This document shows, piece after piece, positions 46,681-63,653 of a stretch of DNA of 64,000 nt (within the stretch, counting starts at the first letter, position 1; every line of letters begins with the position of its first letter). The position numbers were made by a program, and so were the translations under genes. Under the pieces are notes generated by a model. That model had not been told where the DNA came from and made no database searches. It saw only the letters and a list, made by a program, of their open reading frames with translations. The stretch is taken from the NCBI GenBank assembly GCA_963666975.2, contig CAXVYR010000004.1:2240001-2304000 (forward strand), given 5' to 3'. The stretch is from Terriglobia bacterium (GTDB lineage: Bacteria; Acidobacteriota; Terriglobia; 2-12-FULL-54-10).

Positions 46681-47146
46681 TTAAGCCGTCATAGGCATGC
46701 GTGTGTCGTCCACAAGGTCTGGGATGGCGGGTTGAATGAATATCACCGTGACCTTCTCGAAGACTAAAACCATTACCGTTGGCGAGAAGATCTCCCTGAA
46801 TGTTAGCCGCTGCCGGGTCAGACCCGCCTGCATGGCCGGAGTCCTGACTTCGCAGCCGAATTTCAGCGCCCGGTGAGGCCTGACGAAGTTGTAATAGCAT
46901 CGCAGCAACGGGAGGTGATCTTCCAGACGTTGCTCCCGCCGCGCGTAACAGATCGTCCGCCGAAAAAGATACGCCGAACCCTGCCGGATCGTGAGATTCA
47001 ATCGTTCAACATAGGAAGTGTTCAGTTTCGCGGAATCTTCGGAGTTGCGCCCCGCCTGTTCCTATCGCCATGCTGCACCAGTTCTGGCTCTGCGCTCCAC
47101 TCTGACAACGCGATCATTCCCCCGTGTCTTGGTCACTTGGCCGTAC
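46681..47146 (-). pseudogene. IS1-like transposase relic
   Basis: YGQVTKTR...*...NTSYVERLNLTIRQ...RRT...YYNFVRPH.AL...TPAM.AGL. Confidence 0.7.
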
Positions 47147-47553
47147 TGAGGGGCCCTGGATTTTTGTACCAGTTTCAGGGTGAGTTTTGGGCTGTTTCCA
47201 GGCCTTTCCGATTGCAGCGAGCTGCAATCTGAAAGGCGAACTCGTTCGGCGTCCTCTCCCCCAGGGCCCTGTGAGGACGACTCTCGTTGTACTCCCTCCG
47301 CCAAGCCTCGATGATCTGCCTGGCTTCTCCCAGTGTTGTGAACCAATGTACATTCAGGCACTCATCCCGAAACGTCTGCTCCGAGATCCCTACCTTCCGG
47401 ATCAGTTCCCCCACCGGCGCCCCCACCTCAGCCTGCTTCAGTATCCCTACAATCTGCTCCACGCTGAATCGCTTTTGTATCCCCCTTCTTCTGGTCATAG
47501 ATTTTGCCGCAAAACTCACTCTCAACTTGGATCAAAAAACCGGGGGCCGGTCA
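47147..47553 (-). mobile_element. Internally deleted IS3-family element (407 bp) with both IRs
   Basis: IRs TGAGGGGCCCTGGATTTTTGTACCAG...GTGAG and TGACCGGCCCCCGGTTTTTTGATCCAAG...GTGAG. The OrfA start (KRFSVEQIVGIL...GISEQTF) is fused in frame to the OrfB end (RDECLN..WF...YN..RPH.AL). Confidence 0.8.
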
Positions 47554-47695
47554 TGCCCAGCAAGTTTTCCAGTACTCATATGCCGCGCAAAACCGGAGAG
47601 GTCCGGTTGGCGCGCGAGGTCACCGTCAGGATGCTTTCCTTGCCCAGCCCCGGGGGTAAGAATCGTGTATATAGCCGGGTCGGAAGGTGTTATAA

Positions 47696-48559
47696 ATGAA
47701 GCTGGATATGTCACAACACGCTGGCAGCATTGAAATTAGCCTGGCTCTGGAGGTTGCGGCACGCGCGGCGCGCGCAGGCGGGAAGATAGCTAAGGCACGG
47801 CTGGGCGACCCCGGCTATGTGAAGTGGAAGGGCGACCGGGACGTCGTTTCGGAGGCTTCGCTCCAGGTTCAGGAGGCAATCGTCTCGAACCTCCTGGCGG
47901 AATTTCCCCACTCCGGGATTCTGGCCGAGGAGGGGCCCGAGGATGCTCCCCTGCCGGTGGATGCCGAGCATCTCTGGATCGTGGACCCCATCTGCGGCAG
48001 TCTGAACTTCGTCCAGGGCATTCCGTATTTCGGAATCTCTATTGCTCTGCGCTCGGAGGGCAGCATCCGCGCAGGCGTCGTCTATGATCCTTGTCATGAC
48101 GAGATGTTCGAGGCAACGACTGAAGCTACGACGACCCTCAACGGCAAAAAGATTGCCGTTCAGCAAATTTCAGAGGGTGCGGAAGCCTGGGAAAGCGCCA
48201 TCGTGGGAACCGACTGGCCCCACAGCGGCACGCGCCGCGAACAGTCCAGGCGGATTGTAGGGGTGATGACCGGCCAGGTCACCGAGTGCAACCTGATGGG
48301 CTCGCCGTCGCTCGGGATCGCCAGCGTTGCCGCCGGACGCCTGCACGCTTACTGGCATCTTGATTTGAAGATCTGGGACATCGCCGCAGCGAGCCTGATC
48401 CTGGAGCGCGCGGGCGGCATCCTGACCGACGCGCAGGGCACGACCTGGCTCGACTCCGACGGCGGCTACATCGCCAGCAACGATGTGATCCACGGCTGGG
48501 TGCTGGACTGCATGCAGTCGGTTTCAAGTCCTCCGACCCGTCCCCATGGATTCCGCTGA
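47696..48559 (+). CDS. Inositol monophosphatase family protein (variant motif)
   Basis: ILAEEG, WIVDPICGSLNF (canonical DPIDGT) and KIWDIAAA.LI...AGG. Confidence 0.9.
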   Translation: MKLDMSQHAGSIEISLALEVAARAARAGGKIAKARLGDPGYVKWKGDRDVVSEASLQVQEAIVSNLLAEFPHSGILAEEGPEDAPLPVDAEHLWIVDPICGSLNFVQGIPYFGISIALRSEGSIRAGVVYDPCHDEMFEATTEATTTLNGKKIAVQQISEGAEAWESAIVGTDWPHSGTRREQSRRIVGVMTGQVTECNLMGSPSLGIASVAAGRLHAYWHLDLKIWDIAAASLILERAGGILTDAQGTTWLDSDGGYIASNDVIHGWVLDCMQSVSSPPTRPHGFR

Positions 48560-48855
48560 AGACGAGCAGCCACGACGAATGGGCGTCTCAGATTTGCTGT
48601 GAGTTCGTAAATTCGAGAAAAGCCCACGGCGAGGAAAAGCGCTCACCGTGGCTGCCAACGCAAATCCGAGCCGCGAGCGTGAGCGACCGGGCACACACGC
48701 TGATCTGACGTCAAGGTTTGGATGACCACTCCCTAACGGTCGTGGCTCGGACTGGGTTTTCTATGCCGGAGCCAATTCGCCCGCAAAACGCTGCGCAGGA
48801 AACCAAAACAATAAAGCCACGGCGAAAGAACTCATTCACCATGGCTGCCAGCTTT

Positions 48856-49332
48856 TCAAGATTTCTTTGGACGCCGAGCGGGAACCCCGTGAAGCATTCC
48901 TGCAACACTGATGTCTTCGTCCACTACAGGCCAGTGCACTCCGTGACCATCGCCAATAATCTCGAATTGGCTGCGCTGCGCCGGAGTAGCTTCGCTTAAG
49001 CGCCATGACCATGCCAATGGAACGCTGATCACTCGTCCGTCAACGAGGTGAAACGTGATCAACTCCTCCGTAACCGAGACATTGTTGACCCGAGCATCTG
49101 CGCTAACCGCAATGTTCACGCCATGCCTCCTGCTCAGATTTGCGTGAATGATTGCCCGAATTCGGTTGGGCTCCCGTGCAGAAAATCCGTGGTTCTCGGC
49201 GAGGGCCAAAGGCTCCAGCCAGAACTTGCAGACTATTCGCTCCCTTCGGACGTGAACGTGCGCCGGTTCGTTGCAGTCAAAGCTATAGAAGTAGAACCGA
49301 TGCGGCCCTGGAATGTCTGCAACAGTAGGCAC
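48856..49332 (-). CDS. DUF4160 + DUF2442 putative toxin-antitoxin pair fused into one ORF
   Basis: MPTV...RFYFYSFD.NEP.HVHV...KFWL (DUF4160-like) runs into L.DGR.ISVPLAW.WRL..ATP.QR...G.GVHWP.VDEDISV (DUF2442-like). Confidence 0.75.
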   Translation of the reverse strand: MPTVADIPGPHRFYFYSFDCNEPAHVHVRRERIVCKFWLEPLALAENHGFSAREPNRIRAIIHANLSRRHGVNIAVSADARVNNVSVTEELITFHLVDGRVISVPLAWSWRLSEATPAQRSQFEIIGDGHGVHWPVVDEDISVAGMLHGVPARRPKKS

Positions 49333-49508
49333 AGCCGACGCCCACTTGCTACCCTACAACAAAAACGACCGTCAGTCGATAGCTCGCCTCCTCCAGACCC
49401 CGGCACAATGTTCAGCCGGGCGGATCGGTCCGCCGTGGGTTTTTTAATTCGGGAAAAGCCCACAGCGAGAGAAAACGCTCGCCGTGATGGCTACCAATCC
49501 CTTCCTCA

Positions 49509-50821
49509 TTACGGCACAATGCGGACCGAATCGCTCCCCTGGATCGCCTGGCCGGAGAAGGTCTGGCCGGTCAGGATGGCCTGGATGTCGCCGTCGCTCA
49601 GTTCCGAGGCTTCCGTCGAGACGTGGACGACCAGGTCTAAGAGACCATCATCGTTAACATCCTGGGCGGAGGCCATCGGCGTGCCCTTTCCCTTGAGCTT
49701 CACGCTAGCCCCAGCCAGCGTAACGCTCAAGGGGTCCACCGTGGTGGCGTCAAAGAAATTGGGCGCGGGCGTGCTGAGGATCGCCACCGGAACCGTGCCC
49801 CCGGATCCCAGGTTGATGCTGTTCGGATCGCTCCCCGGCTTGATGTCAATGGAAACCTGCAAGGGAGGAACTACGGCTACGCACTGCGGATCAACGAAGA
49901 AACCGCCCGAAGAAATCGCGGTCTGGGTACCGTTAGCGGGATCAACCCTTATGACGCCTCCAGGACCTCCAAAGGCGTCGCCATCTGCGACGATAATGTT
50001 GCCCGAAGCGTCTATGGCGACACCATTAGGCTGAACAAGCGGCGGCCCCGAAGTGATGACTGTCTGACCGCCGGATAATGGGTTGACCTTGATGATGCCA
50101 TTACTAGTTCCATTGAAACCCCGACTGGCCACGATGATGTTCCCGGCTGTGTCTATGGTCAAGTGAATAAGACGAATTAGGTTTCCTCCAAACGCAACGA
50201 CGGTTTGGGCGCCGGTGACCGGGTCAACCCTTATGATGGCGCCAATATCCCCACCATCAATGTGGTGTTCGGGGACACCACTATATCGCCGACCGCGTCA
50301 ATGGCGACGCCAAGGGGGTCAACGAAGAAACCGCCAGAGGAGATAAGAGTCTGGGCACCGGTGGTTGGATTGACTTTTATGACGCTGCCAGAGTTGAGCG
50401 AGGGGCCAGCGTCTGCGACGATGATGTTGCCTGCAACGTCCAACGTTACAGCCTTCGGATCAACGAAGAATCCTCCTGAAGAGATCGCCGTTTGGGAACC
50501 CGTCGTCGGGTCGACCCTTATTAGTCCCCCCCCACCCAAGGCGTTGTCGTCTGCCACGATGATCTGGCCGGCTGCATCTATCGCGCACCCCCTGGGGACA
50601 GAAAACAACCCCCCCGTTAAGTCTCCCGCCGATGAGATGACTTCTTGAACACCCGTGATCGGGTCCACCTTTATCACACCACCCCGGCCGCCAAAGGAGT
50701 TTGCGTCGACCACAATTATGTCGCCAGGTTTCAGAGTCACGGCCTGGGCTGCGGGAATGAGGATGGCCGCAGCGAACAAGGCCAGCGCAACGCGTAGCAG
50801 TTTAGGAAGAATTGATACCAT
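49509..50821 (-). pseudogene. Secreted NHL-like beta-propeller protein with C-terminal Ca-binding-like domain, split by one frameshift near 50270
   Basis: Repeats of AIDAAG.IIVAD...G.IRVDP.TG.QT.ISSGG. The alternative frame bridges both ORFs (EHHIDGGDIGAIIRVDPVTGAQ). C-terminus IDIKPGSDPNSIN...DVNDDGLLDLV. Confidence 0.75.
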
Positions 50822-50956
50822 GACTAGCTCCCTCCAGCATGATAATCCGCAACTTTTTACACGGGGAAAAATTACACTAACCCCCTATGACTGTCAACAA
50901 AAAATGTTGCTTATCGCCGGTTTGTTGCTCAAAGACCACAACGTATGCTTCGGTGG

Positions 50957-51172
50957 ATGGCCGAGGACATTCGCATTCGATTTGGAATCAGGCTGCGGAA
51001 GCTCCGTCTCAAACGGGGCTGGACTCAAGTGCAGATGGCAGAAAGGCTTGGCTTAGATCAGAGTTATCTTGCGGATGTCGAGCGGGGTAAGCGGAACATC
51101 TCCATTTTGAACTTGGAAGTGATTGCCAACGGATTCGGTATTTCGATTTCCCAATTGTTTTCCCGTCTTTAG
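50957..51172 (+). CDS. XRE-family HTH regulator (controller/C-protein-like)
   Basis: FG.RLRKLR...TQ..MAERLGL..SY.ADVERGKRNIS..NL..IA. Confidence 0.88.
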   Translation: MAEDIRIRFGIRLRKLRLKRGWTQVQMAERLGLDQSYLADVERGKRNISILNLEVIANGFGISISQLFSRL

Positions 51173-51244
51173 ACCCACGGCAAAAAAACGCTCGCCATCG
51201 CTACCGGAATTGTAACCGCTTGCTCAGGCGCGTGGCTCTGATGG

Positions 51245-52237
51245 TTATCCCAACGCTTCCAGAATTGTCTGCTCCAGCATGTTCTGAGCGATGTCCACCT
51301 TGTAGGCGTTCATGCTCATCGGGCGGGCGACGGTGCGGATGACGGCGGCGGCCTGCTGGATGCTGCTCTTGATGTTCTTGCCTTTGAGCTGGTTCTCGAC
51401 GACGGTGGCGCGGTAGGGGACCGGCGCTACGCCGCCGAGCACGATGCGGCCATCGGTCCATGTGCCGTTGCTTTCGGTGAAAGCGGCGGCGACGGAGACA
51501 ACGGCAAAGTCATAAACCTGGCGGTTCTTGAGCTTTGCCCAGGCCTGTTTGGCGCCCTGCGCCGGAGTGGGGATGAAGACCTCGGTCATCAGCTCGTTCG
51601 GCTGGAGGACGTTTTCGCGCAGAATATCCTCGCCCGGACTGATGAAGTAGTCGTCGAACGGGATCGTCCGCTCGCCATTCGGTCCGGCGATTTTTGCCTG
51701 GGCGTTGAGGGCCAGCAGCGCGTGGGCCGTGTCAGAAGGATGAACGATGTAGCACTGCTCACCGCCAATGATGGCGTGATAGCGATTGTCGCCGGTCACG
51801 GAAAAGCAGACGTCGCCGCCCTTTTTGTAGCAGTCGAAGTCCGTGCCCCGGAAGAACCAGCAGCGCGGGCGCTGGTTGATGTTGCCGCCCAGCGTCCCGT
51901 AATTGCGGATCAACTGCGACGCCACGCTGCGCGCGGACTGGGTGAGCAGCGGGAAGCGCTCGGTCAACTCTTTCGACTCGACAATTTCGCTCAGGGTGGC
52001 GAGAGCCCCGATGGTGGCTCCGCTGTTGTCGACCTTGACGCCGCGGAGTTGGGGAATGGTGGTCAGATCGACCAGCGCGTCGGGCAAGGGCATGCCTTTG
52101 CCCTGAACCCAGTCTTTCATCACCCCGGCGACGAGGTCGCTGCCGCCCGCCAGAGCCTTGGCCTTGGTTCCGAACTTGGTCAGGACGCCGACGGCTTCCT
52201 GAACGCTTTTGGGCTCGTATAGTTGGAAACTTTTCAT
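51245..52237 (-). CDS. Xanthine-dehydrogenase-family FAD-binding subunit (PaoB/YagS-like, with 4Fe-4S insert)
   Basis: LAGGSDL, ASQLIRN.GT.GGN and QRPRCWFFR...CYKKGG..C...C.IVHPSD. Confidence 0.93.
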   Translation of the reverse strand: MKSFQLYEPKSVQEAVGVLTKFGTKAKALAGGSDLVAGVMKDWVQGKGMPLPDALVDLTTIPQLRGVKVDNSGATIGALATLSEIVESKELTERFPLLTQSARSVASQLIRNYGTLGGNINQRPRCWFFRGTDFDCYKKGGDVCFSVTGDNRYHAIIGGEQCYIVHPSDTAHALLALNAQAKIAGPNGERTIPFDDYFISPGEDILRENVLQPNELMTEVFIPTPAQGAKQAWAKLKNRQVYDFAVVSVAAAFTESNGTWTDGRIVLGGVAPVPYRATVVENQLKGKNIKSSIQQAAAVIRTVARPMSMNAYKVDIAQNMLEQTILEALG

Positions 52238-52243
52238 CTTTAC

Positions 52244-54733
52244 TTACCTCACATTCCTGAGCGCTGCCAGCAATTTCTCGCGTGTAAGCGGCATTCTCTC
52301 CATCCATACGTCTACCGCGTTGTGTACGGCTGCCGCGACTGTAGGCGCGGGGGGAGACATCGGCGGCTCGCCGATTCCGTGAGCGCCGAAAACTCCATAC
52401 GCCTTGGGCCGCTCGATGAGGATGACATCGATCTCCTCGGGGACGTCCTGGATGCTCAGCGGGCGGTAGTCGAGCAGGTTCGGATTGAGCGGCAGGCCCG
52501 TCCCCGCATCGTGCAGCAACTCTTCGGTGAGGGTGGCGCCCAGGGCCATGACCACGCCGCCCTCGATCTGCTGTTCCAGCGCGAACGGATTGATCGCCCG
52601 GCCGACGTCGTGTGCCGCCACGAACTTCGTGACCGTGACGGTGCCGGTTCTGGTGTCGACCTCAACCTCGGCGGCGTGTGACGCCCAGGCCGTTCGCCGC
52701 CAGTCGTTGTCTTGCCTGTAGATCGCCCGTCCGAGGATCGGGAGGCCGTAGGCCCGCACGGTCGTCTCCAGGGTGTATTTGTTGGAGGGGTCGGCCTTCA
52801 CGAAAACATCGCCATTTTTGATATCCAGCTCTTCCGGCGTCACCTGAAACTGCTCGTTTCTCCGCTCGGCATCGTCCGCGAACTTCTGGGCGGCAAACTT
52901 CAGAATCTGGAGCTTGGCATCGACGGCAGCTTCGTACATGCCGCGTCCGCCGGTGTTGGTTTGCCGGCTCCCGGAGGTGCTGGCCGTGTCGGTGGTATTG
53001 TCGGTGTCCACATAGGGGGTGATACTCACCGCATGCAGAGGCACGCCCAGCGCTTCCGCCGCAATCATCGCCATTTGCGTCCGTTGGCCCGGGCCGATCT
53101 CCGTGCTTCCCGAAACGCATTGCACGCTCCCGTCCCGGTTCACAATCACCTGCCCGGTTGCCGGGTTAGAGCCGCCGCCGTGGCTGCATGCGTGAGCGGC
53201 CAGGCCGATCCCGTGGAAAACCCCCGGTCGTATCTCCCTCGCCCGCGGCGCGTGCCACTTCTGCTTCCATCCGATGCGGTCGGCTGCGGCGTGGATGCAA
53301 TCCCGAATGCCCGGGTTGCTGAACGGCCTTCCGGTTTCCGGGTTGCCCTCCTCGTTGAGGTTCATCAGCCGGAATTCGACGGGATCCATCCCGATGGCGT
53401 AAGCCGCCTTCTCCATCATCATCTCCAGGGCGAAGGTGCCGTTCGGATGGCTCACGCAGCGGTAGGCCCCGGACTTGTAGCTGTTGGTGAAGACGTCGGT
53501 AGCCTCCAGCTTCAAGTTCGGGATCTTGTATAGGTTCTGCATGTTGAACCAGGCGCCGTTGGCCCCGCCCGCTCGATGCGCGCCGACGTTGGCGTAGACG
53601 CGAAAATGGCCGAACTGAAGCTTGCCGTCGCGGTTGACGCCCAGCTTCATCTCGTTGCGAAACTCGGGCCGGTGAGTGCGCGTGACGAAGTCTTCCTCGC
53701 GCGTGTACATCGTCTTGACCGGACGCCCGGTGATCTTGGCCAGGATGGCCGCGTGCACCTCCGGCAAATCAATGCCGCTGCGGTAGCCGTACCCTGACCC
53801 CATGTAGCCGGTCTGGATGACCCGAATGTGGTTCGCCGGGATCTTCAGGGCCTGGGAAAAACGGGCCCGGCTGCCGTGCGCGTGCTGGTTGGTGTAGTAC
53901 ACGATCAGGCGGTCCTGGTCCCAGTACATCAGCGAGTTGGTCAGCTCCAGCGCCACATGCTGCTCGGTGGATTTCGTCAGCACCGCGTCGATGGTGGTGT
54001 CGGCGCGCGCCGTATCCGGGTTGCCCCGGACCAGCGGCGGCGTCACGTTGACGATGGTCCCGTTTTCCTTGTTGTCCCACTGCTTGAGCGCGGAGGGCCG
54101 TATGCCCTCCATCATGTCCAGCATGGCGGGCAGCCGCTCGTACTCCACCTCGATCAAGTGGGCCGCATGATCGGCGATGTGCTCGCTTTCGGCCGCGACG
54201 ACGGCGATGGGCGATCCAACCTCAAAGACCTCTTCGTTGAACAGCAAGCGGTCGGGCGGGCCGCTGCCCAGTTTGACGTCGCGGTACTCTACCGGCAGGT
54301 TGCCGCGATGCAGCACGGCCACCACGCCGGCCAGTTTCTCGGCCTTGCTGGTGTCGACTTTTGTGATCTTGGCATGGGGATACGGGCTGCGCAGAGTTCG
54401 TGTATGGAGCATCCCCGGCATGCGCATGTTCTGGGTGAATTTGCCGAGGCTCGTGACGACCCCCAGGCCGTGCAGGCGGGGGACTCGTTTGCCGATCACA
54501 TGGAACTGTTCGGCCGGCGCGGGGGCCGCCGTTGCTGACTGGACTGCCCGGGGAGCGGCCATTCCCAGCTTCGCCGCGTAGAGATCCATTACAGGGGCAG
54601 CCATCTCCTCGAATTCACCGACCACTTCGTCCCATGCCGGGTCATCGGCCAGCGCGTGCCACTGAGCGTCGGTCAGTCTGGCTGCATACGCTGGGTCTTG
54701 AACGACGCGCAGGGCATCGACTTTGAGAGCCAT
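52244..54733 (-). CDS. Xanthine-dehydrogenase-family molybdopterin-binding subunit with AYRC active-site loop
   Basis: LRSPYPHAKI, GSGYGYR, GAYRCVSHP, TEIGPG, TSGSR, DVGRAINP...QIEGG and GIGEPP. Confidence 0.93.
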   Translation of the reverse strand: MALKVDALRVVQDPAYAARLTDAQWHALADDPAWDEVVGEFEEMAAPVMDLYAAKLGMAAPRAVQSATAAPAPAEQFHVIGKRVPRLHGLGVVTSLGKFTQNMRMPGMLHTRTLRSPYPHAKITKVDTSKAEKLAGVVAVLHRGNLPVEYRDVKLGSGPPDRLLFNEEVFEVGSPIAVVAAESEHIADHAAHLIEVEYERLPAMLDMMEGIRPSALKQWDNKENGTIVNVTPPLVRGNPDTARADTTIDAVLTKSTEQHVALELTNSLMYWDQDRLIVYYTNQHAHGSRARFSQALKIPANHIRVIQTGYMGSGYGYRSGIDLPEVHAAILAKITGRPVKTMYTREEDFVTRTHRPEFRNEMKLGVNRDGKLQFGHFRVYANVGAHRAGGANGAWFNMQNLYKIPNLKLEATDVFTNSYKSGAYRCVSHPNGTFALEMMMEKAAYAIGMDPVEFRLMNLNEEGNPETGRPFSNPGIRDCIHAAADRIGWKQKWHAPRAREIRPGVFHGIGLAAHACSHGGGSNPATGQVIVNRDGSVQCVSGSTEIGPGQRTQMAMIAAEALGVPLHAVSITPYVDTDNTTDTASTSGSRQTNTGGRGMYEAAVDAKLQILKFAAQKFADDAERRNEQFQVTPEELDIKNGDVFVKADPSNKYTLETTVRAYGLPILGRAIYRQDNDWRRTAWASHAAEVEVDTRTGTVTVTKFVAAHDVGRAINPFALEQQIEGGVVMALGATLTEELLHDAGTGLPLNPNLLDYRPLSIQDVPEEIDVILIERPKAYGVFGAHGIGEPPMSPPAPTVAAAVHNAVDVWMERMPLTREKLLAALRNVR

Positions 54734-54757
54734 CTCGTACCTCCTCCTTTACCCTTA

Positions 54758-55744
54758 CTACGGCCTGACAGGGTGGCCCAATTCAGCAATGGCCCGCCGC
54801 ACAGCGGCTTCGTCGAGCCTGGCGGGGTCCCAAACGGGCGTGATCGTGCGCTCCGTGCCGGAAACATCCACGATACCGGGCATCTGCTGCAATTCCAGGG
54901 ACAGATCGTCGTACACCTCGATCGTTCCCAGCGGATCCACAAACTCAAACTGCATGGAGACAGCGCCCTCCACGGGGCCAGCCGAAGCGGCTGCCTGTTC
55001 GGCGTAGATCAGCGGCGCTGAGTAGCTGACTTGCTCGCCCCTCATCTCTGCGGCGGCCTTCTTCACCGAAGTGAGTATCTTGGGGTACTCGCCGCAGCGG
55101 CAGATGTTGCCGTCCAGCGCCTCTTTGATCTCGGCGTTCGTGGGGTTCTGGTTGGCCTGCAACAGGGCGTAAGCAGACATCACGAAGCCGCGAGTGCAGA
55201 TGCCGCACTGGAAACCGCCCTCGAGCCAGAAGGCGCGCTGCACGGGATGCAGCCCCCGGAAACCCGGCCCATTGGAGATGCCGGCCACGGTCTGTATCTT
55301 TTGCCCTCGGCCATTCCGTGCGGTCAGCACGGAGCACCCGGTAACCGCTCTGCCGTCCACCAGCACGGTGCAAGCGCCGCACTGCGCGCGGTCACAGCCG
55401 AGGTTGGAGTTCGAGAGCCCCAGCTTGTAGTTCATCGTCTCCCACAGGCTCTCGCGAACATCCACGGTGACGTCGTGCTTCTTGCCGTCGATCTCCAATG
55501 AGACATGGCGCATCGTCACGGGATCGGCGGCGGCTGTTTGAGCCGCCTGCGGAGCGGCCACTGCGGGCTGCACCAGGTTGGCAGCGAAGCCCGTGCCGGC
55601 CATGACGCCGACCGCGACGGCTCCGGTATTGCCCTGGATCAGAAAGTCCCGCCGCGTGATCACCCGTCTGGGTTCTTGGGGTGCGCCCGAACCGGGTTCG
55701 GCCTGGGGAAACTGCTTGTCTTTTGCCATTTCGTCTGCTGCCAT
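54758..55744 (-). CDS. Xanthine-dehydrogenase-family 2x[2Fe-2S] subunit with Tat signal and C-terminal HMA-like domain
   Basis: ITRRDFL twin-arginine motif, GCDRAQCGACTV...C, QCGICTRG and GNICRCG, plus about 65 extra C-terminal residues. Confidence 0.92.
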   Translation of the reverse strand: MAADEMAKDKQFPQAEPGSGAPQEPRRVITRRDFLIQGNTGAVAVGVMAGTGFAANLVQPAVAAPQAAQTAAADPVTMRHVSLEIDGKKHDVTVDVRESLWETMNYKLGLSNSNLGCDRAQCGACTVLVDGRAVTGCSVLTARNGRGQKIQTVAGISNGPGFRGLHPVQRAFWLEGGFQCGICTRGFVMSAYALLQANQNPTNAEIKEALDGNICRCGEYPKILTSVKKAAAEMRGEQVSYSAPLIYAEQAAASAGPVEGAVSMQFEFVDPLGTIEVYDDLSLELQQMPGIVDVSGTERTITPVWDPARLDEAAVRRAIAELGHPVRP

Positions 55745-56218
55745 TGGAAACTCCCTATTCCGGAACTGGAAGCCAAGCGGGCCTTACGCCCGCGCGGAAA
55801 GCGGGTGCGCTGCGATACCATTCAGCGCGGTCCCTTCAACGGAAATTTGCGATTTCAACGCGTGCTCAGTAAAGATTCTATGCCAGCTCCCCGGTGGATT
55901 CAAGCTCGGATCACCGTGGTCTTTTCCGGATGAGATCACAGCTCACAAGCAAGATGAGCGCACAGGGAAGCTGTCCCGTTTTTGCTCCCGCCTAATTGAT
56001 TTTGTTGCAGAAAGATTACGCGAGAGAGGGGGGCAAATCAACTGACCCACTACCCAGGCAGTTGGGAAGTTGGGAATTTACAAGAAGATACTGCCGTCGC
56101 CAAAAGAGGGCATAGCGGTCTGAGATTAGGTGGGCAGGGCGGCGGGGATTGTTTTGTTGATTTAAGGAATGGTTAAAACGGAAATTCCCGCTAAAGGGGA
56201 AAAGGCTAAAAGAAAAAA

Positions 56219-56446
56219 GTGGGCGGTTCTGGCCTCGGTGCTGCCTCGCAGGCTTTTAGGACATCACGTCCCAGTGCTCAGCTATTCTTGCTCCTGAGCT
56301 TGTTGTTATCGCCTCGGTTGCTGTCAACCCTTCTCTGTGGCATCTCAGTCGCCGAACCGAGCAGCATCCTTACTACTATATTGCGGACTAGCTTCTCGGG
56401 CCAGAAGGGCACAGACGGTCAGTTACCGGGGTCCTTAGCCGCCCAC
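56219..56446. ncRNA. Candidate structured non-coding RNA or element (nested stems), identity unknown
   Basis: Nested complementary pairs GTGGGCGG/CCGCCCAC, TTCTGGCC/GGCCAGAA and TGCTGC/GCAGCA, plus inner hairpins; no convincing ORF. Confidence 0.45.
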
Positions 56447-56811
56447 CCTTGAATAGTCAGGTGGTATAGAAGACCTCCTTCCTGACCTTGCGTATTGCTC
56501 AGGCGGTGTTGCACAGCCGCGATTTCTATTGCGGCTCTGGAAGCCAGCCTGAGAACAGCCTCCAGTTTTGATTTTCTCTCAGACGGGAGCAGAACACAAT
56601 CATGGAAAGGAGGGAGGTGAGCAAGAAAACACCACCATTTTTGGCCTTAGAAATCACCAAGCTTTAGAAATCCAGACCGTAGAGATTCCAAAGAAGAAGC
56701 GTTGGCTGAACTATCCCCTCATGGTGTGCAGTTTGGGAGGTTAGGTTATTCCTTTATTTGGGCAAGGCCCAGGCCGCCTGATCCTCACGTTGTAACTACT
56801 GGATCAATCCG

Positions 56812-58701
56812 TCAGTGGACGCTTTCATGAACCACCTCTCGTAGCAGACGCACCAGCGCCTTGTCCTCGTGACCGATGTGTTTGACGATCTCTTCCGCTC
56901 TGGGAGAAAGTCGCCGGTAGCCCCAGCGTGATCGTCGTTTGGTCTCGCTCCAGCCTTCACGCTGATAATAAAGCGGCAGGTTGACATCGAAATAGGAAAT
57001 ACTGTCTGCGTCCTTGAGCAGATCGGAATCTGGATCGCCGCCCACCTCATGGGCTTCCACTAAACGGCAGGCCTCGTACACAATATCCCGCGCCACACCA
57101 CAGACGGTCAGTATCGGGCGCAGTATTTCCGCGCTGTTTCGGGAATGGGCTGCCTTAAAGGCGTCGTAATCCTCGAAGTCCTCTCGCCTGACCTTGCTTT
57201 CCTCGATTGCCCGGTCGATGTCATGGGCCAGCGCCGCCAGTTGCAGGGCATCGCCGGCATCCGGTTGCAGGCGCAACAACCACTCCAGGGTGTTGTCGGC
57301 GTGACGTGAATCCTCCGGCACCTGTGAGTTCACAATGACCAGCCGGATTTTCTGCTTGGCGCGTTCGATGTTAGTCGGTACACTCGCAACCCAAATCCGG
57401 CGCAAGGTCTCAATATTCATCACCAGGGCGATGACCACCAGCCCCGGCAGTATCAGATTCGTCGCTGCACACAGAAAGATGAGAAACACGCGCACATCTC
57501 GTCCCATCCGCAACCCGGCCCGGCCCCCGGCTTTGATGCGCTGGCGCATCACGTGGTCGTACTTGTCGGCCGTGTAACTCAGCATGAACGAGCCGATTAT
57601 GGCCATGAAACCAGTGAAGAGAATCCAGCCGTTGGCTTCTACCGCCAGCAGGTGCCAGGTCAAGCCGAACAGCAGGAAGGCATCGGCATAGCGGTCCAGC
57701 ACTGCATCGAACCAGCCGCCGAAGTCGCTGCGTTGGTACTTCAGCCTGGCCACTTCGCCGTCGCAACCATCGATGATGGAGGCGAACTGTGCCAGAACGC
57801 CGCCCAGGAGCAGAGCGGGATATCCACCCAGAGCAAACAGTCCTGCGGCCAGCAGGGAGCCCAGAAACGAGAACAGGGAAATTTGATTGGGGGTGATATT
57901 CAGTTGAGCCAGACGGCGGGAAAAAAACATGGAGATGGAGCGGTTGAAGTAACGGGACACCGGCCCGTCGGTTGGCTTGTCCCGGAGACGCTCCAGCAGG
58001 GCCTTCTCCGCCCTCTGGATGGCCTCGGGATCGTCCACATCGATCCAGAAACCGCTTACAGGGATCGCTTTGGCGCGTCCATCTGCGGCCAAGATCCGGA
58101 TCGCCCCGGTCAGTGTCGTATCGCCGTCTTTTTCTATGCTCTGTTCCAGTGCCCTAAAGATTTCGGAAGAGCAGAGGAAAATGCCGGTATCGAACCCGTT
58201 GAAATCGGTTATTCCTTTGCCGATATCACAGATCTTCCCGTCTTCCACCTTAACGCGGGTCACATCATCCAAGTCGACGAGGGAGTTGCGAATATCGCCA
58301 TCCACTCCGAGCGCTATCTCCCCCTCCAACAGGGAATGGGACGTCAATGCGCGGGCCAGATTCGGATCAAAGAGGTGATCCGCCATGAGCAGCAAAAACG
58401 GTTCTTGCAAGACCTCCCGCGCCTTGAGTATCGAAAGGCCATTTCCTTTCTCCCAATCGTCATTCACCAGCGGGGTGATCCGAACCGCAAGACGTTCCGC
58501 CAACCGCTCCAGAAAATCGCGGACCTGGTCGCCCCGGTAGCCTGTCACAACATAAAACTGATCCGCCCCGGCTTCCATGGCGGAGCGGATGACGCGTTCG
58601 ATCAGGGGAATGCCCAGCAGGGGGACCAGGGGCTTGCTGTCACCCTTCTGCCGCAGTCGGCTGCCATTGCCCGCCGCGATGATCAGACACTTTATCCCCA
58701 T
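56812..58701 (-). CDS. Three-domain protein: sugar-phosphate nucleotidyltransferase + CDP-alcohol phosphotransferase (IPCT/DIPPS-like) + HD/DUF4202-like domain
   Basis: IIAAGNGSRL...KPL, MADH, DTG.F and WIDVDD; then DGPVSRYFNR, TPNQI and DGCDGEVAR...GGWFD..LDRY.D; then RH...AHDIDR...H...AHE...DADS. Confidence 0.88.
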   Translation of the reverse strand: MGIKCLIIAAGNGSRLRQKGDSKPLVPLLGIPLIERVIRSAMEAGADQFYVVTGYRGDQVRDFLERLAERLAVRITPLVNDDWEKGNGLSILKAREVLQEPFLLLMADHLFDPNLARALTSHSLLEGEIALGVDGDIRNSLVDLDDVTRVKVEDGKICDIGKGITDFNGFDTGIFLCSSEIFRALEQSIEKDGDTTLTGAIRILAADGRAKAIPVSGFWIDVDDPEAIQRAEKALLERLRDKPTDGPVSRYFNRSISMFFSRRLAQLNITPNQISLFSFLGSLLAAGLFALGGYPALLLGGVLAQFASIIDGCDGEVARLKYQRSDFGGWFDAVLDRYADAFLLFGLTWHLLAVEANGWILFTGFMAIIGSFMLSYTADKYDHVMRQRIKAGGRAGLRMGRDVRVFLIFLCAATNLILPGLVVIALVMNIETLRRIWVASVPTNIERAKQKIRLVIVNSQVPEDSRHADNTLEWLLRLQPDAGDALQLAALAHDIDRAIEESKVRREDFEDYDAFKAAHSRNSAEILRPILTVCGVARDIVYEACRLVEAHEVGGDPDSDLLKDADSISYFDVNLPLYYQREGWSETKRRSRWGYRRLSPRAEEIVKHIGHEDKALVRLLREVVHESVH

Positions 58702-59808: not shown

Positions 59809-60489
59809 ATGTCATCGAAGCTCTTTCTTGGCTTGGTCCTGGGTGTTCTGACTTTCCTTGTTGGCGGGTTTTTCCTGCGTTCGGGCTCGGCTTCTCCAGC
59901 GGTTGAGTCCTTTCCCGATCCGGTGGTCGATATGGATCGCTCCGTCGCGAAAGCGAAGCGAACCGCAGTACTCGCGGGCGGATGCTTTTGGTGCACCGAG
60001 GTGGTCTTCGAACAATTCACCGGTGTGAGCGGTGTCGTCTCCGGTTATGCCGGGGGCAAGCGGGAAACGGCCCGCTATGATGCGGTGAGCTCGGGAAAAT
60101 CGGACCATGCCGAATCCATCCAGATCACGTTCGACGCTTCCCATATCTCTTACGGACAGTTGCTGAAGATTTTCTTTAGCGTGGCGCACGATCCTACCCA
60201 GTTAAACCGGCAAGGCCCCGATTATGGGCGGCAGTACCGCTCAGCGATCTTCTTCGCCGACGCGGAGCAGAAACAGATCGCAGAGGCCTACATCAAGCAA
60301 CTACAGAAGGCCGAAGTTTTCAGCAAACCGATCGTCACCGAGCTGAGAGAACTCAAGGCTTTCTATCCGGCCGAGGAGTATCATCAGGACTTCGTCGAGC
60401 GAAACCCCGACCATCGCTATGTTGTCGTTAACGCGATCCCGAAGGTGAAGAAAACGAGGAAGGCATTCCCGTCGTTAGTGAAGAAGTAG
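59809..60489 (+). CDS. msrA: Peptide methionine sulfoxide reductase MsrA (with N-terminal signal/anchor)
   Basis: AGGCFWC, SGYAGG, HDPTQLNRQGPD.G.QYRSAIF and FYPAE.YHQD. Confidence 0.96.
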   Translation: MSSKLFLGLVLGVLTFLVGGFFLRSGSASPAVESFPDPVVDMDRSVAKAKRTAVLAGGCFWCTEVVFEQFTGVSGVVSGYAGGKRETARYDAVSSGKSDHAESIQITFDASHISYGQLLKIFFSVAHDPTQLNRQGPDYGRQYRSAIFFADAEQKQIAEAYIKQLQKAEVFSKPIVTELRELKAFYPAEEYHQDFVERNPDHRYVVVNAIPKVKKTRKAFPSLVKK

Positions 60490-60826: not shown

Positions 60827-61807
60827 TCACACAAGCACCAAGACGCAGGCAACACAAGCCACAAAGACAGCGGCGGTGGCTGCAATCAGTTTTCCGGCAC
60901 GGATGAAGTCCTGATGGCTGCCGCCCTCCGTGTCGGATTTCTCGCCCAGCCAGACCTCCGTAATCAACCGGCCGCGAAGCCATATGGGACCGGCAAGCCG
61001 GCGTTCGAGCGCTCCGGCGGCGGCGGCTTCGCTCCATCCGGAATTCGGACCCGGCACCACCGCGTGCTGTTGCCAGCCAATGCGCCAAGCCTTCCGGCTG
61101 GAGTAGCCTGGAATTACCGCAGCGGCAATTCCCATCAGCGCCCAGGCCGCACGCGCCGGGACGAAGTGAAGCAGATCGTCCGCGCGAGCGCCAAACCAGC
61201 CGAAGCGCAGGTAGCGAGGCGTCTTAAATCCCACCATCGAATCCATGGTGCTGACTAGCTTCAGAAGAACCACTCCCGGCAATCCGAGCAAGGCGTACCA
61301 GAAGATCGGGCTGATAAACCCATCGACGAGGCCTTCGCTCATGCTCTCGATGGCGGCTCGCCAGCAAGCTGCAGCGTCCATGGAGCCGGTGTCACGGGCG
61401 ACCAGACTGGCAGTGGCCTCGCGGGCCGCCGAGAGGTCGCCGGACTGCGCGGCGCGGTCAATGGCCATCCCGTGCCCCAGCAGGTCGCGGAGCGCAATCA
61501 TGTGGAACAGCACGAACAGATGAAATCCAAAAGCGGCTGCGCGGCTCACATTCGCCAGAACCAGCGCCAGCAGGCTCATGCCCCCCACCCAGATCAGCGA
61601 TAAAATCAAGAAAAGGAGAACCCCGCCAAACCGCCCGTCCAAACCGCCCGCGCGTAGGAGACGTTCCAGCCACCCGAGCGACGCTCCCAGGAGGCGGATG
61701 GGATGCCATCGGTAGACCGGATCTCCGAGAATCGCATCGGCGCCCACCGCCGCCAGCAACAGCAGCGCGCCGGGTTGGAGAACGCTCAGGTCCACTTGGT
61801 TTTCCAC
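60827..61807 (-). CDS. cbiB: Adenosylcobinamide-phosphate synthase CbiB/CobD
   Basis: D.ILGDP...HPIR..G, LVARDT, AAIESMSEG..DG..SP.F, TMDSMVG, AR.DD...F.PAR and PNSGW.EAA.AGAL. Confidence 0.93.
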   Translation of the reverse strand: MENQVDLSVLQPGALLLLAAVGADAILGDPVYRWHPIRLLGASLGWLERLLRAGGLDGRFGGVLLFLILSLIWVGGMSLLALVLANVSRAAAFGFHLFVLFHMIALRDLLGHGMAIDRAAQSGDLSAAREATASLVARDTGSMDAAACWRAAIESMSEGLVDGFISPIFWYALLGLPGVVLLKLVSTMDSMVGFKTPRYLRFGWFGARADDLLHFVPARAAWALMGIAAAVIPGYSSRKAWRIGWQQHAVVPGPNSGWSEAAAAGALERRLAGPIWLRGRLITEVWLGEKSDTEGGSHQDFIRAGKLIAATAAVFVACVACVLVLV

Positions 61808-62940
61808 CCCAGGGCAAGGGCTTCGACCACCGCCGCGGCCGGGTCTTGTTCATCGACGGAAAGCTGCCTCCAATAGTCCGCCCAACGATCGGGTTTGGCG
61901 GCCAGCGCACTGGCGATGTTCGCCGCCTGTTGCCGGAGAACCTCCCTGGCGAGCCCGGAAGGAATCGTTCCGTAGCTCACGCGGTCAAGCACGGCAGCGA
62001 AGGCGTAGGCGCAGGCAGCCACCTGCGGATCGTAAAAAACAGCTTTGTCATTTTGCTGCAACAAAGCCATCTCTTGGGATGACAACAACGGAGCGATTCG
62101 CGCCATCAGTTGGTCTCGCGTCAACCCGAAGCGTCTTAAGGCATGAAAGATGCTCCTGGTGTAGGACGCCTCAAGACCGTTCTGCCAGCGGAGAGCCTCT
62201 TTAGTGGCTTCGAGCACTGCACGGCCAATCATCTCGCCGAGCTTGCCGTGCTGGCTGGTCGATTCCTTCGGCGTTCTGTTCTTGTCCAGGGGCGCGGCAA
62301 TCGAGTATTGGTCCGTGCCCGTGCCGGTTGCCAGGTGTTGCGAGTAGCGGCTCGATACGGCCAGCTCTTGCAGCGCGGCGGACTTTGCCTCAGTCATCGT
62401 GACCACCGCGCGCGCCTGAGCCGCCGGAGTCAGCGGCCAGTTGAAAAACAGCATGGTGTTGATCGTGCCGGTGTGGGCGTGGAGCTTTTGCCATCCGCTG
62501 CCGGTCTCAACCCAATGGGCCGGGTCGCCGGCGCGAACGGCGTTTCCCTCCACTCCCGCTGTGACTACGGCGTCGACGGCGAGTTCCTCATAACTTTCAT
62601 TCCGGTGGACGGCGTAGCGCATGTTCGCCGCCGTTCCCATCAGCGCCACCTCATCGGGAGGGAGGCCCAGTTCCTCGCAGACTTGGTTGTGGTAACCGAG
62701 CTGGCCCAGCTCGCCGAGCAGGACATGACGCGCGGCATGGCCCGCGCCTTCGCAACTTTGATGATTGACTACATACCGGACGGACTCACTCTGCCCGCCG
62801 CCGTGGGCAGAGGTGCTGAGCACACGGTGAGCCTCCTGCAACTCGCCCAGCAGGAACCGCCCGCTACGGTGGACAGCGAAGCCGCTGCCTTGGCAGATCA
62901 TTTCATAACCAGCCTTGTCGATCATCATGGTGTCATCCAT
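61786..62940 (-). CDS. cbiZ: Adenosylcobinamide amidohydrolase CbiZ (long form)
   Basis: LSTS..GG, MGTAANM, VTAGV.GNA.RAGD, GTIN, TEAK.AAL and ATGTGTD. Confidence 0.88.
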   Translation of the reverse strand: MDDTMMIDKAGYEMICQGSGFAVHRSGRFLLGELQEAHRVLSTSAHGGGQSESVRYVVNHQSCEGAGHAARHVLLGELGQLGYHNQVCEELGLPPDEVALMGTAANMRYAVHRNESYEELAVDAVVTAGVEGNAVRAGDPAHWVETGSGWQKLHAHTGTINTMLFFNWPLTPAAQARAVVTMTEAKSAALQELAVSSRYSQHLATGTGTDQYSIAAPLDKNRTPKESTSQHGKLGEMIGRAVLEATKEALRWQNGLEASYTRSIFHALRRFGLTRDQLMARIAPLLSSQEMALLQQNDKAVFYDPQVAACAYAFAAVLDRVSYGTIPSGLAREVLRQQAANIASALAAKPDRWADYWRQLSVDEQDPAAAVVEALALGWKTKWT

Positions 62941-63096
62941 AGGGTGTCATCCATAGCGGTTGATTCACAGGTTGATTCGGACCGACTTGCCGGAGTCCAG
63001 TATGATGCACCACGTTCGAGTTCACGCTGGAAATTTTCAAATTCAGTTTGGGGCTTGACACCGGGATCGGTCTCACTGTAGCCTTGCGTCGATTGA

Positions 63097-63278
63097 CCTT
63101 GGGCGCCCGCTTTGGGCCCAAAAGGGAATTCCGGTGAGAAACCGGAGCGGTCCCGCCACTGTGAGTGTCGAGCTAGACCCAAGAAAGCCACTCGGATCAC
63201 GGATCCGGGGAAGGCTGGGTCAGCGTTGATGGGATTTATATCCCGTCTGAAGCCACGAGCCAGGACACCTGCCCAGGG
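63097..63278 (+). promoter_or_regulatory. Cobalamin (B12) riboswitch
   Basis: AAAAGGGAA.CCGGTG..AA.CCGG.GCGGTCCCGCCACTGT...AGCCAC...GGGAAGG...GAGCCAGGA.ACCTGCC; P1 CCTTGGGC/GCCCAGGG; TTGACA at 63055. Confidence 0.92.
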
Positions 63279-63653
63279 TGGAAGAGGCATGTTTTCCGCG
63301 AGGAGACGGACGAGTTGCCTGCAGCCAGCCCTTATCAGAATCACGACGCCGAGACACCTGCCCGACCGAAGGCAAGCTTTCTTGTCTCAGCGCACCGCTC
63401 TGTTCCTGGCTCTTGCATCCCTTTCCATCGGTTTATTCCCACGGCGATTTAGCCCCACGGTGAACCCCGCGCGGTAACGCGTGATCCTCGGTGACGTGCC
63501 TCCCCGGTCAAAACCCTGATGGGTTTGAGAGATGTGGTTATTGCGAGATGTGGCCATTGAGAGGTGTGACCACTGAAGATGGCAGCGAAGATGGCCACCA
63601 TACGCGGTAACACCCGTCCGGCACTCACACGAAGGGATTTGGTGGATAGAGGC

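Follow-up and report, generated by a model that had tools for sequence, protein, structure and literature searches.

The window analysed here, the whole 64,000-nucleotide stretch of contig CAXVYR010000004.1 from a Terriglobia bacterium, carries three minus-strand genes encoding the iron-sulfur (S), molybdopterin-binding (L) and flavin adenine dinucleotide (FAD; M) subunits of an enzyme of the xanthine oxidase family (XOF). The three genes are separated by gaps of 24 nt and 6 nt and form one operon (Table 1). In L, a cysteine (Cys426) occupies the position of the copper ligand of CoxL, the large subunit of aerobic CO dehydrogenase (CODH), and it is this residue, together with a second Cys/His-rich segment of the same subunit, that sets the enzyme apart. 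To our knowledge, a protein cysteine at the Mo site is known within the XOF only for CODH.

Table 1. Features of the S-L-M operon and its convergent neighbour, in positions of the window (Tat, twin-arginine translocation; AF2, AlphaFold 2; pLDDT, predicted local distance difference test; locus labels denote related genome loci)
Feature	Position	Strand	Basis or remark
S, Fe-S subunit, 328 aa	54758-55744	-	Pfam Fer2_2 (2.4e-27) and Fer2; eight Cys
L, molybdopterin-binding subunit, 829 aa	52244-54733	-	Pfam Ald_Xan_dh_C, MoCoBD_1, MoCoBD_2; AF2 pLDDT 93.5
M, FAD subunit, 330 aa	51245-52237	-	Pfam FAD_binding_5 and CO_deh_flav_C
Tat motif TRRDFL, S residues 30-35	55640-55657	-	aligned with PaoA TRRD-L
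HMA-fold C-terminal domain of S, residues 266-328, no Cys	54761-54949	-	AF2 and Foldseek
N-terminal extension of L, residues 1-75, helical module	54509-54733	-	outside solved structures
First Mo loop GSGYGYR, L residues 312-318	53780-53800	-	aligned with CoxL GGGFGNK and PaoC GGGFGGK
Active-site loop AYRCVSHP of L	53444-53467	-	translated; Cys426 codon 53456-53458
HACSH of L (His514, Cys516, His518), second active-site segment	53180-53194	-	co-varies with Cys426
Glu789 of L, catalytic Glu of GIGEPP	52367-52369	-	aligned with CoxL E763 and PaoC E692
Four-Cys insert of M, residues 123-169, putative [4Fe-4S] site	51731-51871	-	PaoB alignment
Inositol-monophosphatase-family gene, convergent neighbour	47696-48559	+	Pfam Inositol_P 8.8e-50
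Loci with the inositol-monophosphatase-family gene after M			L003, L004, L006, L007, L009, L010, L013, L015, L016, L017, L018, L020

The hammerhead domain of L (Ald_Xan_dh_C, 1e-25) and both of its molybdopterin-binding domains (MoCoBD_1, 1.4e-56; MoCoBD_2, 1.9e-58) all score above the Pfam gathering scores, and the subunit was modelled by AF2 with high confidence (pLDDT 93.5, predicted template modelling score 0.93). The eight cysteines of S (117, 122, 125, 137, 180, 183, 215 and 217) align with those of PaoA and CoxS and are predicted to serve two [2Fe-2S] clusters. M contains exactly four cysteines (126, 136, 144 and 162), all inside an insert of ~40 residues which aligns Cys-for-Cys with the insert of PaoB; CoxM has no such insert. 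An RRDF[LF] motif is present in 19/19 family S sequences that include the N-terminus. A preliminary description of the locus as a Tat-exported, PaoABC-like trimer is thus borne out by the TRRDFL motif of S and by the insert of M, and the unusual first Mo loop, the intact GIGEPP and the N-terminal extension of L which it had listed are all present.

No NCBIfam model was reached at its cut-off by S, L or M, and the same applies to 11 relatives, in line with the earlier view that no characterised group fits. The best NCBIfam match of L is XdhA (442 bits versus a cut-off of 780); L scores 296.9 bits against the PaoC model NF041671 (cut-off 1180), 194.9 bits against the form I CoxL model TIGR02416 (cut-off 991.15), and S scores 137 bits against the PaoA model NF008514 (cut-off 322). 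For the alpha, beta and gamma models of 4-hydroxybenzoyl-CoA reductase (4-HBCR) the scores are 371.7, 169.8 and 120.8 bits, relative to cut-offs of 994.55, 404.55 and 257.8, respectively.

Translation gives the active-site loop of L as AYRCVSHP, with the cysteine at the codon named in the preliminary description. For comparison we used CoxL from A. carboxidovorans plasmid pHCG3 and PaoC and XdhA from E. coli K-12. In a MAFFT alignment, Arg425 and Cys426 of L correspond to Arg387 and Cys388 of CoxL, as had been proposed, and Gln283 and Glu789 of L correspond to Gln240 and Glu763; the PaoC counterparts of Gln283, Arg425/Cys426 and Glu789 are Gln211, Arg350/Ala351 and Glu692. HMMER alignments with solved structures place Cys426 opposite the Gly of an Arg-Gly pair in nicotinate dehydrogenase (3hrd), R. 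capsulatus xanthine dehydrogenase (1jro), quinoline oxidoreductase (1t3q), 4-HBCR (1rm6), D. gigas aldehyde oxidoreductase (1sij; chain index 534, after Arg533) and mouse AOX3 (3zyv), and opposite an Ala in 7dqx. In those structures the Mo site is lined by the Arg next to this position and by the residue two places further along.

Conservation of the cysteine, which the preliminary description had named as a check, was analysed in a set comprising the window L and its 120 best homologs (65-95% identical, n=121), which derive, judging by their names, from Acidobacteriota, Chloroflexota and one Planctomycetes metagenome-assembled genome (MAG). Cys426 is kept in 121/121 of these sequences, so its presence is not due to chance, and the loop has the consensus G[PA]YRCVSHPNGT. 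His429, His514, Cys516 and His518 are each likewise present in 121/121. A wider alignment consisted of 145 rows (the window L and 144 representatives at 50% identity, over 600 aa), with the underlying homolog library covering the best 150 of 37,932 homologs at E <= 0.001. Column 426 here contains Gly in 108 rows, Ala in 16, Cys in 13, Ser in four, Asp in three and Met in one, and the preceding Arg425 is present in 145/145. Among full-length proteins of the library clustered at 50% identity, identity to L drops fast, from 55% through 47, 45 and 43% to 39% or less.

Phylogenetic analysis places L in a distinct clade. In a FastTree phylogeny of 153 rows, the window L lies inside a 23-row clade (support 99) in which residue 426 is Cys in 17 rows, Asp in three, Gly in two and Ala in one. 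An IQ-TREE quick search under LG+G4 with 63 rows, including four CoxL-like paralogs of the same genome, recovered a 22-row clade with a Shimodaira-Hasegawa-like approximate likelihood ratio test (SH-aLRT) support of 97. In both trees this clade is sister to a PaoC-like clade (support 94-97; 97 in IQ-TREE), outside which the window L falls, and in the IQ-TREE phylogeny CoxL and the CoxL-like paralogs are separated from it by a branch with a support of 100. Constraining CoxL to fall inside the clade lowers the log-likelihood by 207 units and is rejected by the approximately unbiased (AU) test (p-AU 6.8e-8), with a constraint group that was chosen after the tree was seen. The trees and the AU test imply that Cys426 is convergent and does not reflect common ancestry with CODH; that is, it arose independently of the CoxL cysteine.

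PMC13203968 assigns form I CoxL by an AYXCSFR motif, the gene order coxM-S-L and monophyly with CoxL of A. carboxidovorans. L differs in all three respects, having AYRCVSH without SFR, the order S-L-M, and a position that is not monophyletic with CoxL. Given the independent origin of Cys426, the failure to find CoxD and CoxE and the Asp that replaces the cysteine in three relatives (see below), the 'CO-dehydrogenase-like' link drawn in the preliminary description is not supported in the form stated.

A tblastn search of a plasmid collection returned no clade member (best match 34% identity), and in a phylum sample of 301 genomes, searched at E <= 1e-200 with three candidates scored per genome, only the window's own genome matched; in the ESM Atlas only generic xanthine dehydrogenase family clusters were retrieved. 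A search around P0128, in a sister subclade, yielded 33 metagenome loci with the order S-L-M and a shorter S. Its loop reads RCVGHP in 29/33 loci, a C-x-H-G segment is found in 17, and an SRRxFLKG motif occurs in 18, which implies that the wider Cys-bearing clade is also exported. In one locus of this subclade (L026:188-2664, plus strand), genes for TctA and TctC of a tripartite tricarboxylate transporter lie directly upstream of S-L-M, as would be expected if a carboxylate product were taken up.

Cys426 is accompanied by a second site. His518 of the HACSH segment aligns with Arg440 of PaoC, with a gap beside it; Arg440 is, by the entry title, the residue mutated in PDB 5g5h. Of the 153 rows, 13 carry both Cys426 and Cys516, six only the former, one only the latter and 133 neither, and the Cys/Cys/His triple at 426/516/518 is complete in 12. 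The six rows (of 19 with Cys426) that lack Cys516 include CoxL itself and P0136, in which CCGHG probably reflects an alignment offset. In three relatives (P0130, P0207 and P0211), each sister to Cys-bearing rows, residue 426 is Asp, 516 is Ser or Asn and 518 is Lys, with GxGEP and the rest of the site retained. In the closest relatives with Gly426, P0123 (971 aa) and P0124, an Asp is present near position 516 and the catalytic Glu is replaced by Gln; these two may be non-hydroxylase offshoots. P0123 is in addition an S-L fusion without a Tat motif. A phylogenetically independent test of Cys426 against Cys516, His518 and His/Asp/Glu429 was not significant (six pairs, median p 0.25-0.5). We read the pattern of co-occurrence and exchange as suggesting that the side chains at 426, 516 and 518 touch each other near the Mo sulfur. 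The swap of the triad to Asp / Ser or Asn / Lys in three sister pairs is easier to reconcile with an interchangeable polar pair than with an indispensable metal centre.

Both S and L carry additional modules. The C-terminal tail of S consists of ~65 conserved residues that follow a variable linker of ~25 residues, and is present in 19/20 family S sequences, being absent in L003. Its AF2 model (pLDDT > 90) has a beta-alpha-beta-beta-alpha-beta topology as assigned by DSSP, and in Foldseek its top matches are domains of ATP7B, CopA, MerP and CopZ (E 5e-4, TMt 0.82, root mean square deviation [rmsd] 1.5 Å), with almost all of the top 30 matches being HMA domains. The likeness to the HMA domains of CopZ, CopA, ATP7B and MerP is one of fold (TMt ~0.8, rmsd 1.5-2 Å over 68-70 columns), with 10-22% identity, no CxxC and no match to the Pfam HMA model; none of the 19/19 aligned domains has a Cys, and PLGTIE stands where GMTCxxC would be. 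Pfam searches at E <= 10 returned nothing for the tail (including HMA, PF00403) or for the N-terminal extension of L. The tail domain was seen only in this kind of Fe-S subunit (70 matches), and a complex prediction for L with the tail gave a score of 0.00, which speaks neither for nor against binding. Solved structures align with L only from residue ~58-80, and AF2 models five short helices within residues 7-52 of the extension, in which Trp25 and Trp34 are kept in 113/121 and 105/121 close homologs, respectively. In L003, whose S lacks the tail, the L homolog (L003:621-3305, plus strand) contains its N-terminal extension twice, with the second copy inserted internally as a stretch of 66 residues; the two features together may stem from genuine domain shuffling or from faulty assembly.

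The order S-L-M is kept across 20 related genome loci. By tblastn, no homolog of CoxD, CoxE, CoxF, CoxG, XdhC or PaoD was found in the 64-kb window (E <= 1e-3), and no CoxD or CoxE homolog in the 20 related loci or in the genome (the latter at 1e-5). The earlier statement that neither coxDEFG nor xdhC lies nearby therefore stands for the window but does not extend to all of the relatives: in three Chloroflexota loci (L010, L011 and L013) an XdhC-family gene (PF02625 and PF13478) adjoins S directly upstream and in divergent orientation. The 4.23-Mb genome itself has ~11 XOF large-subunit paralogs, none of which has AYRCSFR, and one XdhC gene, which lies near an ORF that begins with CxxxCxxC and was on that ground judged to be MoaA-like. 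XdhC-type chaperones deliver sulfurated molybdenum cofactor (PMC10609526).

Comparison with characterised systems reveals partial likenesses to several of them. E. coli PaoABC (YagTSR, PDB 5g5g) resembles the window enzyme in having a Tat signal on the Fe-S subunit and, in PaoB, a four-Cys [4Fe-4S] insert in the FAD subunit. PaoC and L have a common fold (Z 48.2 for 5g5g_C; rmsd 2.1 Å over 706 residues) but are only 27% identical. The PaoABC order is S-M-L rather than S-L-M, and paoD has no counterpart in the window. RAPGE in the PaoC loop is replaced by RCVSH in L, Arg440 of PaoC by the HACSH segment, and the GGGFGxK first Mo loop common to CoxL and PaoC by GSGYGYR; the N-terminal module of L and the HMA-fold tail of S are both extra in the window enzyme. 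The best structural match of L is a periplasmic aldehyde oxidase from Methylobacillus sp. KY4400 (5y6q_C, Z 49.0), at 23% identity; for M, the solved structure closest in sequence is 5y6q_B (9.3e-50). By sequence, the best PDB match of L is instead 4-HBCR (HcrCAB, 1rm6; 2.2e-78), and HcrB is the best NCBIfam match of M. The hcrCAB genes are in the order S-L-M. The 4-HBCR FAD subunit likewise has a [4Fe-4S] insert; however, its large-subunit loop (RGHG) differs from that of L, and 4-HBCR works on CoA esters in the cytoplasm, whereas the window enzyme is predicted to be Tat-exported. In form I CoxL (A. carboxidovorans, 1n5w), AYR and the Cys stand in the same columns as in L, and the Mo-site Gln and Glu are kept in L. 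After the Cys, CoxL continues with SFRV and L with VSH-P, one residue shorter, and the two enzymes differ further in clade, gene order, export, the Fe-S insert of the FAD subunit and the coxDEFG genes, which the window does not have.

On balance we lean towards the view that S-L-M encodes a Tat-exported PaoABC-type molybdo-flavo-iron-sulfur oxidoreductase whose Mo centre is sulfurated, matured by XdhC and otherwise ordinary, with an unusual second sphere of Cys, Cys and His around it. The folded, cofactor-loaded trimer would be transported to the periplasm via the Tat signal on S. There, hydroxylation or oxidation of a small substrate, by default guessed to be an aldehyde or an N-heteroaromatic compound, would take place at a conventional molybdopterin centre in its sulfurated form, with Gln283, Arg425 and Glu789 retained at the Mo site. 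Electrons would pass through the two [2Fe-2S] clusters of S and the FAD and [4Fe-4S] cluster of M to a periplasmic acceptor. Cys426 would lie by the equatorial sulfur of Mo and Cys516-x-His518 on a neighbouring strand, with His429 and His514 adding to a thiol- and imidazole-rich second sphere. We infer that these residues serve to bind or position the substrate and to modulate or protect the Mo=S group, with no extra metal and no covalent bond to Mo.

Several observations weigh against this proposal. None of the 22-23 rows of the clade is characterised, so that the substrate class is guessed from analogous enzymes. No XdhC gene stands next to the operon in 17/20 related loci or in the window. 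The five Cys and His residues at 426, 429, 514, 516 and 518, each at 121/121, are as suggestive of a metal site as of a substrate pocket, and the HMA-fold tail of S points to metal handling.

The latter two points fit a heterometallic centre, in which a second metal (Cu or other) would be held by Cys426, Cys516 and His518 next to Mo or bridged to it by the sulfido ligand. Such a centre would resemble the Mo-S-Cu site of CODH by convergence, and would perhaps be loaded after export with the aid of the HMA-fold tail. The alignment of Cys426 with Cys388 of CoxL, the invariance of the five residues, the occurrence of Cys426 and Cys516 together in 13 of 153 rows as opposed to six and one alone, and the fold of the C-terminal domain of S, which is that of copper chaperones and ATPase metal-binding domains, are all consistent with it. 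We nevertheless regard it as doubtful. CoxD and CoxE function in the insertion of sulfur and Cu. Their homologs were found neither in the loci nor in the genome, no copper-handling gene recurs across the 20 neighbourhoods, and the cysteine originated independently of that in CoxL. The HMA-like domain has no Cys and no Pfam HMA match and is absent in L003. Furthermore, Asp, a poor Cu(I) ligand, takes the place of Cys426 together with Lys518 in three relatives.

Alternatively, the sulfur of Cys426 could be bonded to the sulfido ligand, as a Mo-S-S-Cys persulfide, or directly to Mo, and would thereby replace or stabilise a labile terminal sulfido in the oxidising periplasm. By homology with Cys388 of CoxL and its geometry in CODH, Cys426 would point towards the equatorial sulfur. 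Enzymes of the dimethyl sulfoxide reductase family switch between Cys, selenocysteine, Ser and Asp as ligands of Mo, which the Cys/Asp alternation in the three sister pairs resembles. PMC13653126 discusses Cys-sulfido persulfides for formate dehydrogenase and Nap, and notes that the sulfido is easily lost. The lack of an adjacent XdhC gene in most loci is also in keeping with a tethered centre. Against it, no precedent is known within the XOF, XdhC adjoins the operon in the three Chloroflexota loci and is encoded once in the window's genome, and direct ligation would need a loop shift of several angstroms relative to CODH. We consider a tether unlikely, about as much so as a second metal.

A reversible Cys426-Cys516 disulfide, formed after export and gating or protecting the active site, is less probable again. 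The two cysteines co-occur, Tat export to the oxidising periplasm applies to the window family and the P0128 subclade alike, and the Asp426-Lys518 pair of the relatives could represent a salt-bridge substitute for the disulfide. However, Cys516 is missing in six of the 19 Cys426 rows, even if one of these is CoxL and another is probably misaligned, and the phylogenetically corrected test was not significant (six independent pairs, median p 0.25). That the operon encodes a genuine, form I-like aerobic CODH can practically be dismissed: the AYRC tetrapeptide is identical to that of CoxL, but VSH replaces SFR, the order is S-L-M and not M-S-L, the AU test and the TIGR02416 score speak against it, and the enzyme is Tat-exported and has no coxDEFG.

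Whichever role the thiols have, the preferred assignment as a PaoABC-type oxidoreductase with an unusual second sphere concerns a clade that is well populated in soil and groundwater metagenomes, and that combines an invariant Cys acquired by an independent route with a second Cys, a His and a chaperone-like fold fused to the Fe-S subunit. If the thiols do bind a metal or the sulfido, the enzyme would have a new kind of Mo centre and offer a natural experiment on the origin of the Mo-Cu site. A bolder form of this idea, a second, independently evolved bimetallic or Cys-bridged Mo centre with chemistry beyond ordinary hydroxylation, for which the Cys-free HMA-fold tail would be a docking or loading module, seems improbable to us. 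If the thiols only shape the pocket, S-L-M still counts among the unassigned periplasmic oxidoreductases of abundant soil phyla, as one of many 'coxL-like' genes; a soil metagenome study notes that most such genes in its data are other than type I and probably have different substrates (PMC6784897). Several of the related MAG contigs appear, by name alone, to come from the same soil site as that study. An 'AYRC' match alone is insufficient to call an organism a CO oxidiser. In the literature, with few subscription journals covered, we found no description of the clade, though supplementary coxL trees may include it, and no active-site Cys in the family outside CODH.

Thirteen short contigs matching all three genes were found in four metatranscriptome runs of one study, in which DNA carry-over was uncontrolled; 11/13 match the operon over their full length with 0-1 differences and 2/13 match over only ~30 bases. 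These contigs are a weak hint that the operon is expressed. With Rfam (the whole window at gathering thresholds; 55600-56900 at E <= 1), neither a molybdenum cofactor riboswitch nor any other RNA was detected upstream of S. The 1067-bp intergenic region that precedes S (55745-56811) contains no ORF of at least 80 aa with a family match. A promoter and terminator scan of 50800-56900 yielded one promoter-like site (55903-55875, minus strand), compared with 1.6 expected, and thus no signal.

Beyond S, L and M, the inositol-monophosphatase-family gene alone recurs in more than seven of the 20 loci. Of the 17 loci whose sequence continues past M, 12 carry it immediately after M in convergent orientation (Table 1); these 12 span three phyla and include Chloroflexota and a Gemmatimonadota MAG. 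Its best NCBIfam match is HisN (133 bits, below the cut-off of 275). In the window this gene lies 2.7 kb from M, separated from it by a DUF4160/DUF2442 ORF (48856-49332) and two tandem NHL-repeat ORFs (49509-50162 and 50231-50821), the second of which begins with a hydrophobic, signal-like segment. Remnants of an IS3-type transposase (46681-47525) are present on its far side, and the stretch 46681-50821 around the gene looks disturbed by insertions.

On the other side of the operon, a minus-strand gene (56812-58701) encodes a 629-aa fusion, the N-terminal part of which resembles inositol-1-phosphate cytidylyltransferase / DIPP synthase (279 bits, cut-off 580) and the C-terminal part of which is an HD/DUF4202 domain; together with the inositol-monophosphatase-family gene it brackets the operon. 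We considered this neighbour as a functional partner and rejected it, as it is common only to L012. Two related loci, L010 (18749-22236, minus strand) and L017 (16551-19316, minus strand), have a second, different XOF operon within 10 kb. Further along the window, a peptide methionine sulfoxide reductase MsrA (59809-60489, plus strand) has an N-terminal hydrophobic segment and is probably exported or membrane-anchored, and a cobalamin riboswitch (63084-63290, plus strand; 102 bits) adjoins genes for CbiZ (61786-62940) and CobD (60827-61807) on the opposite strand.

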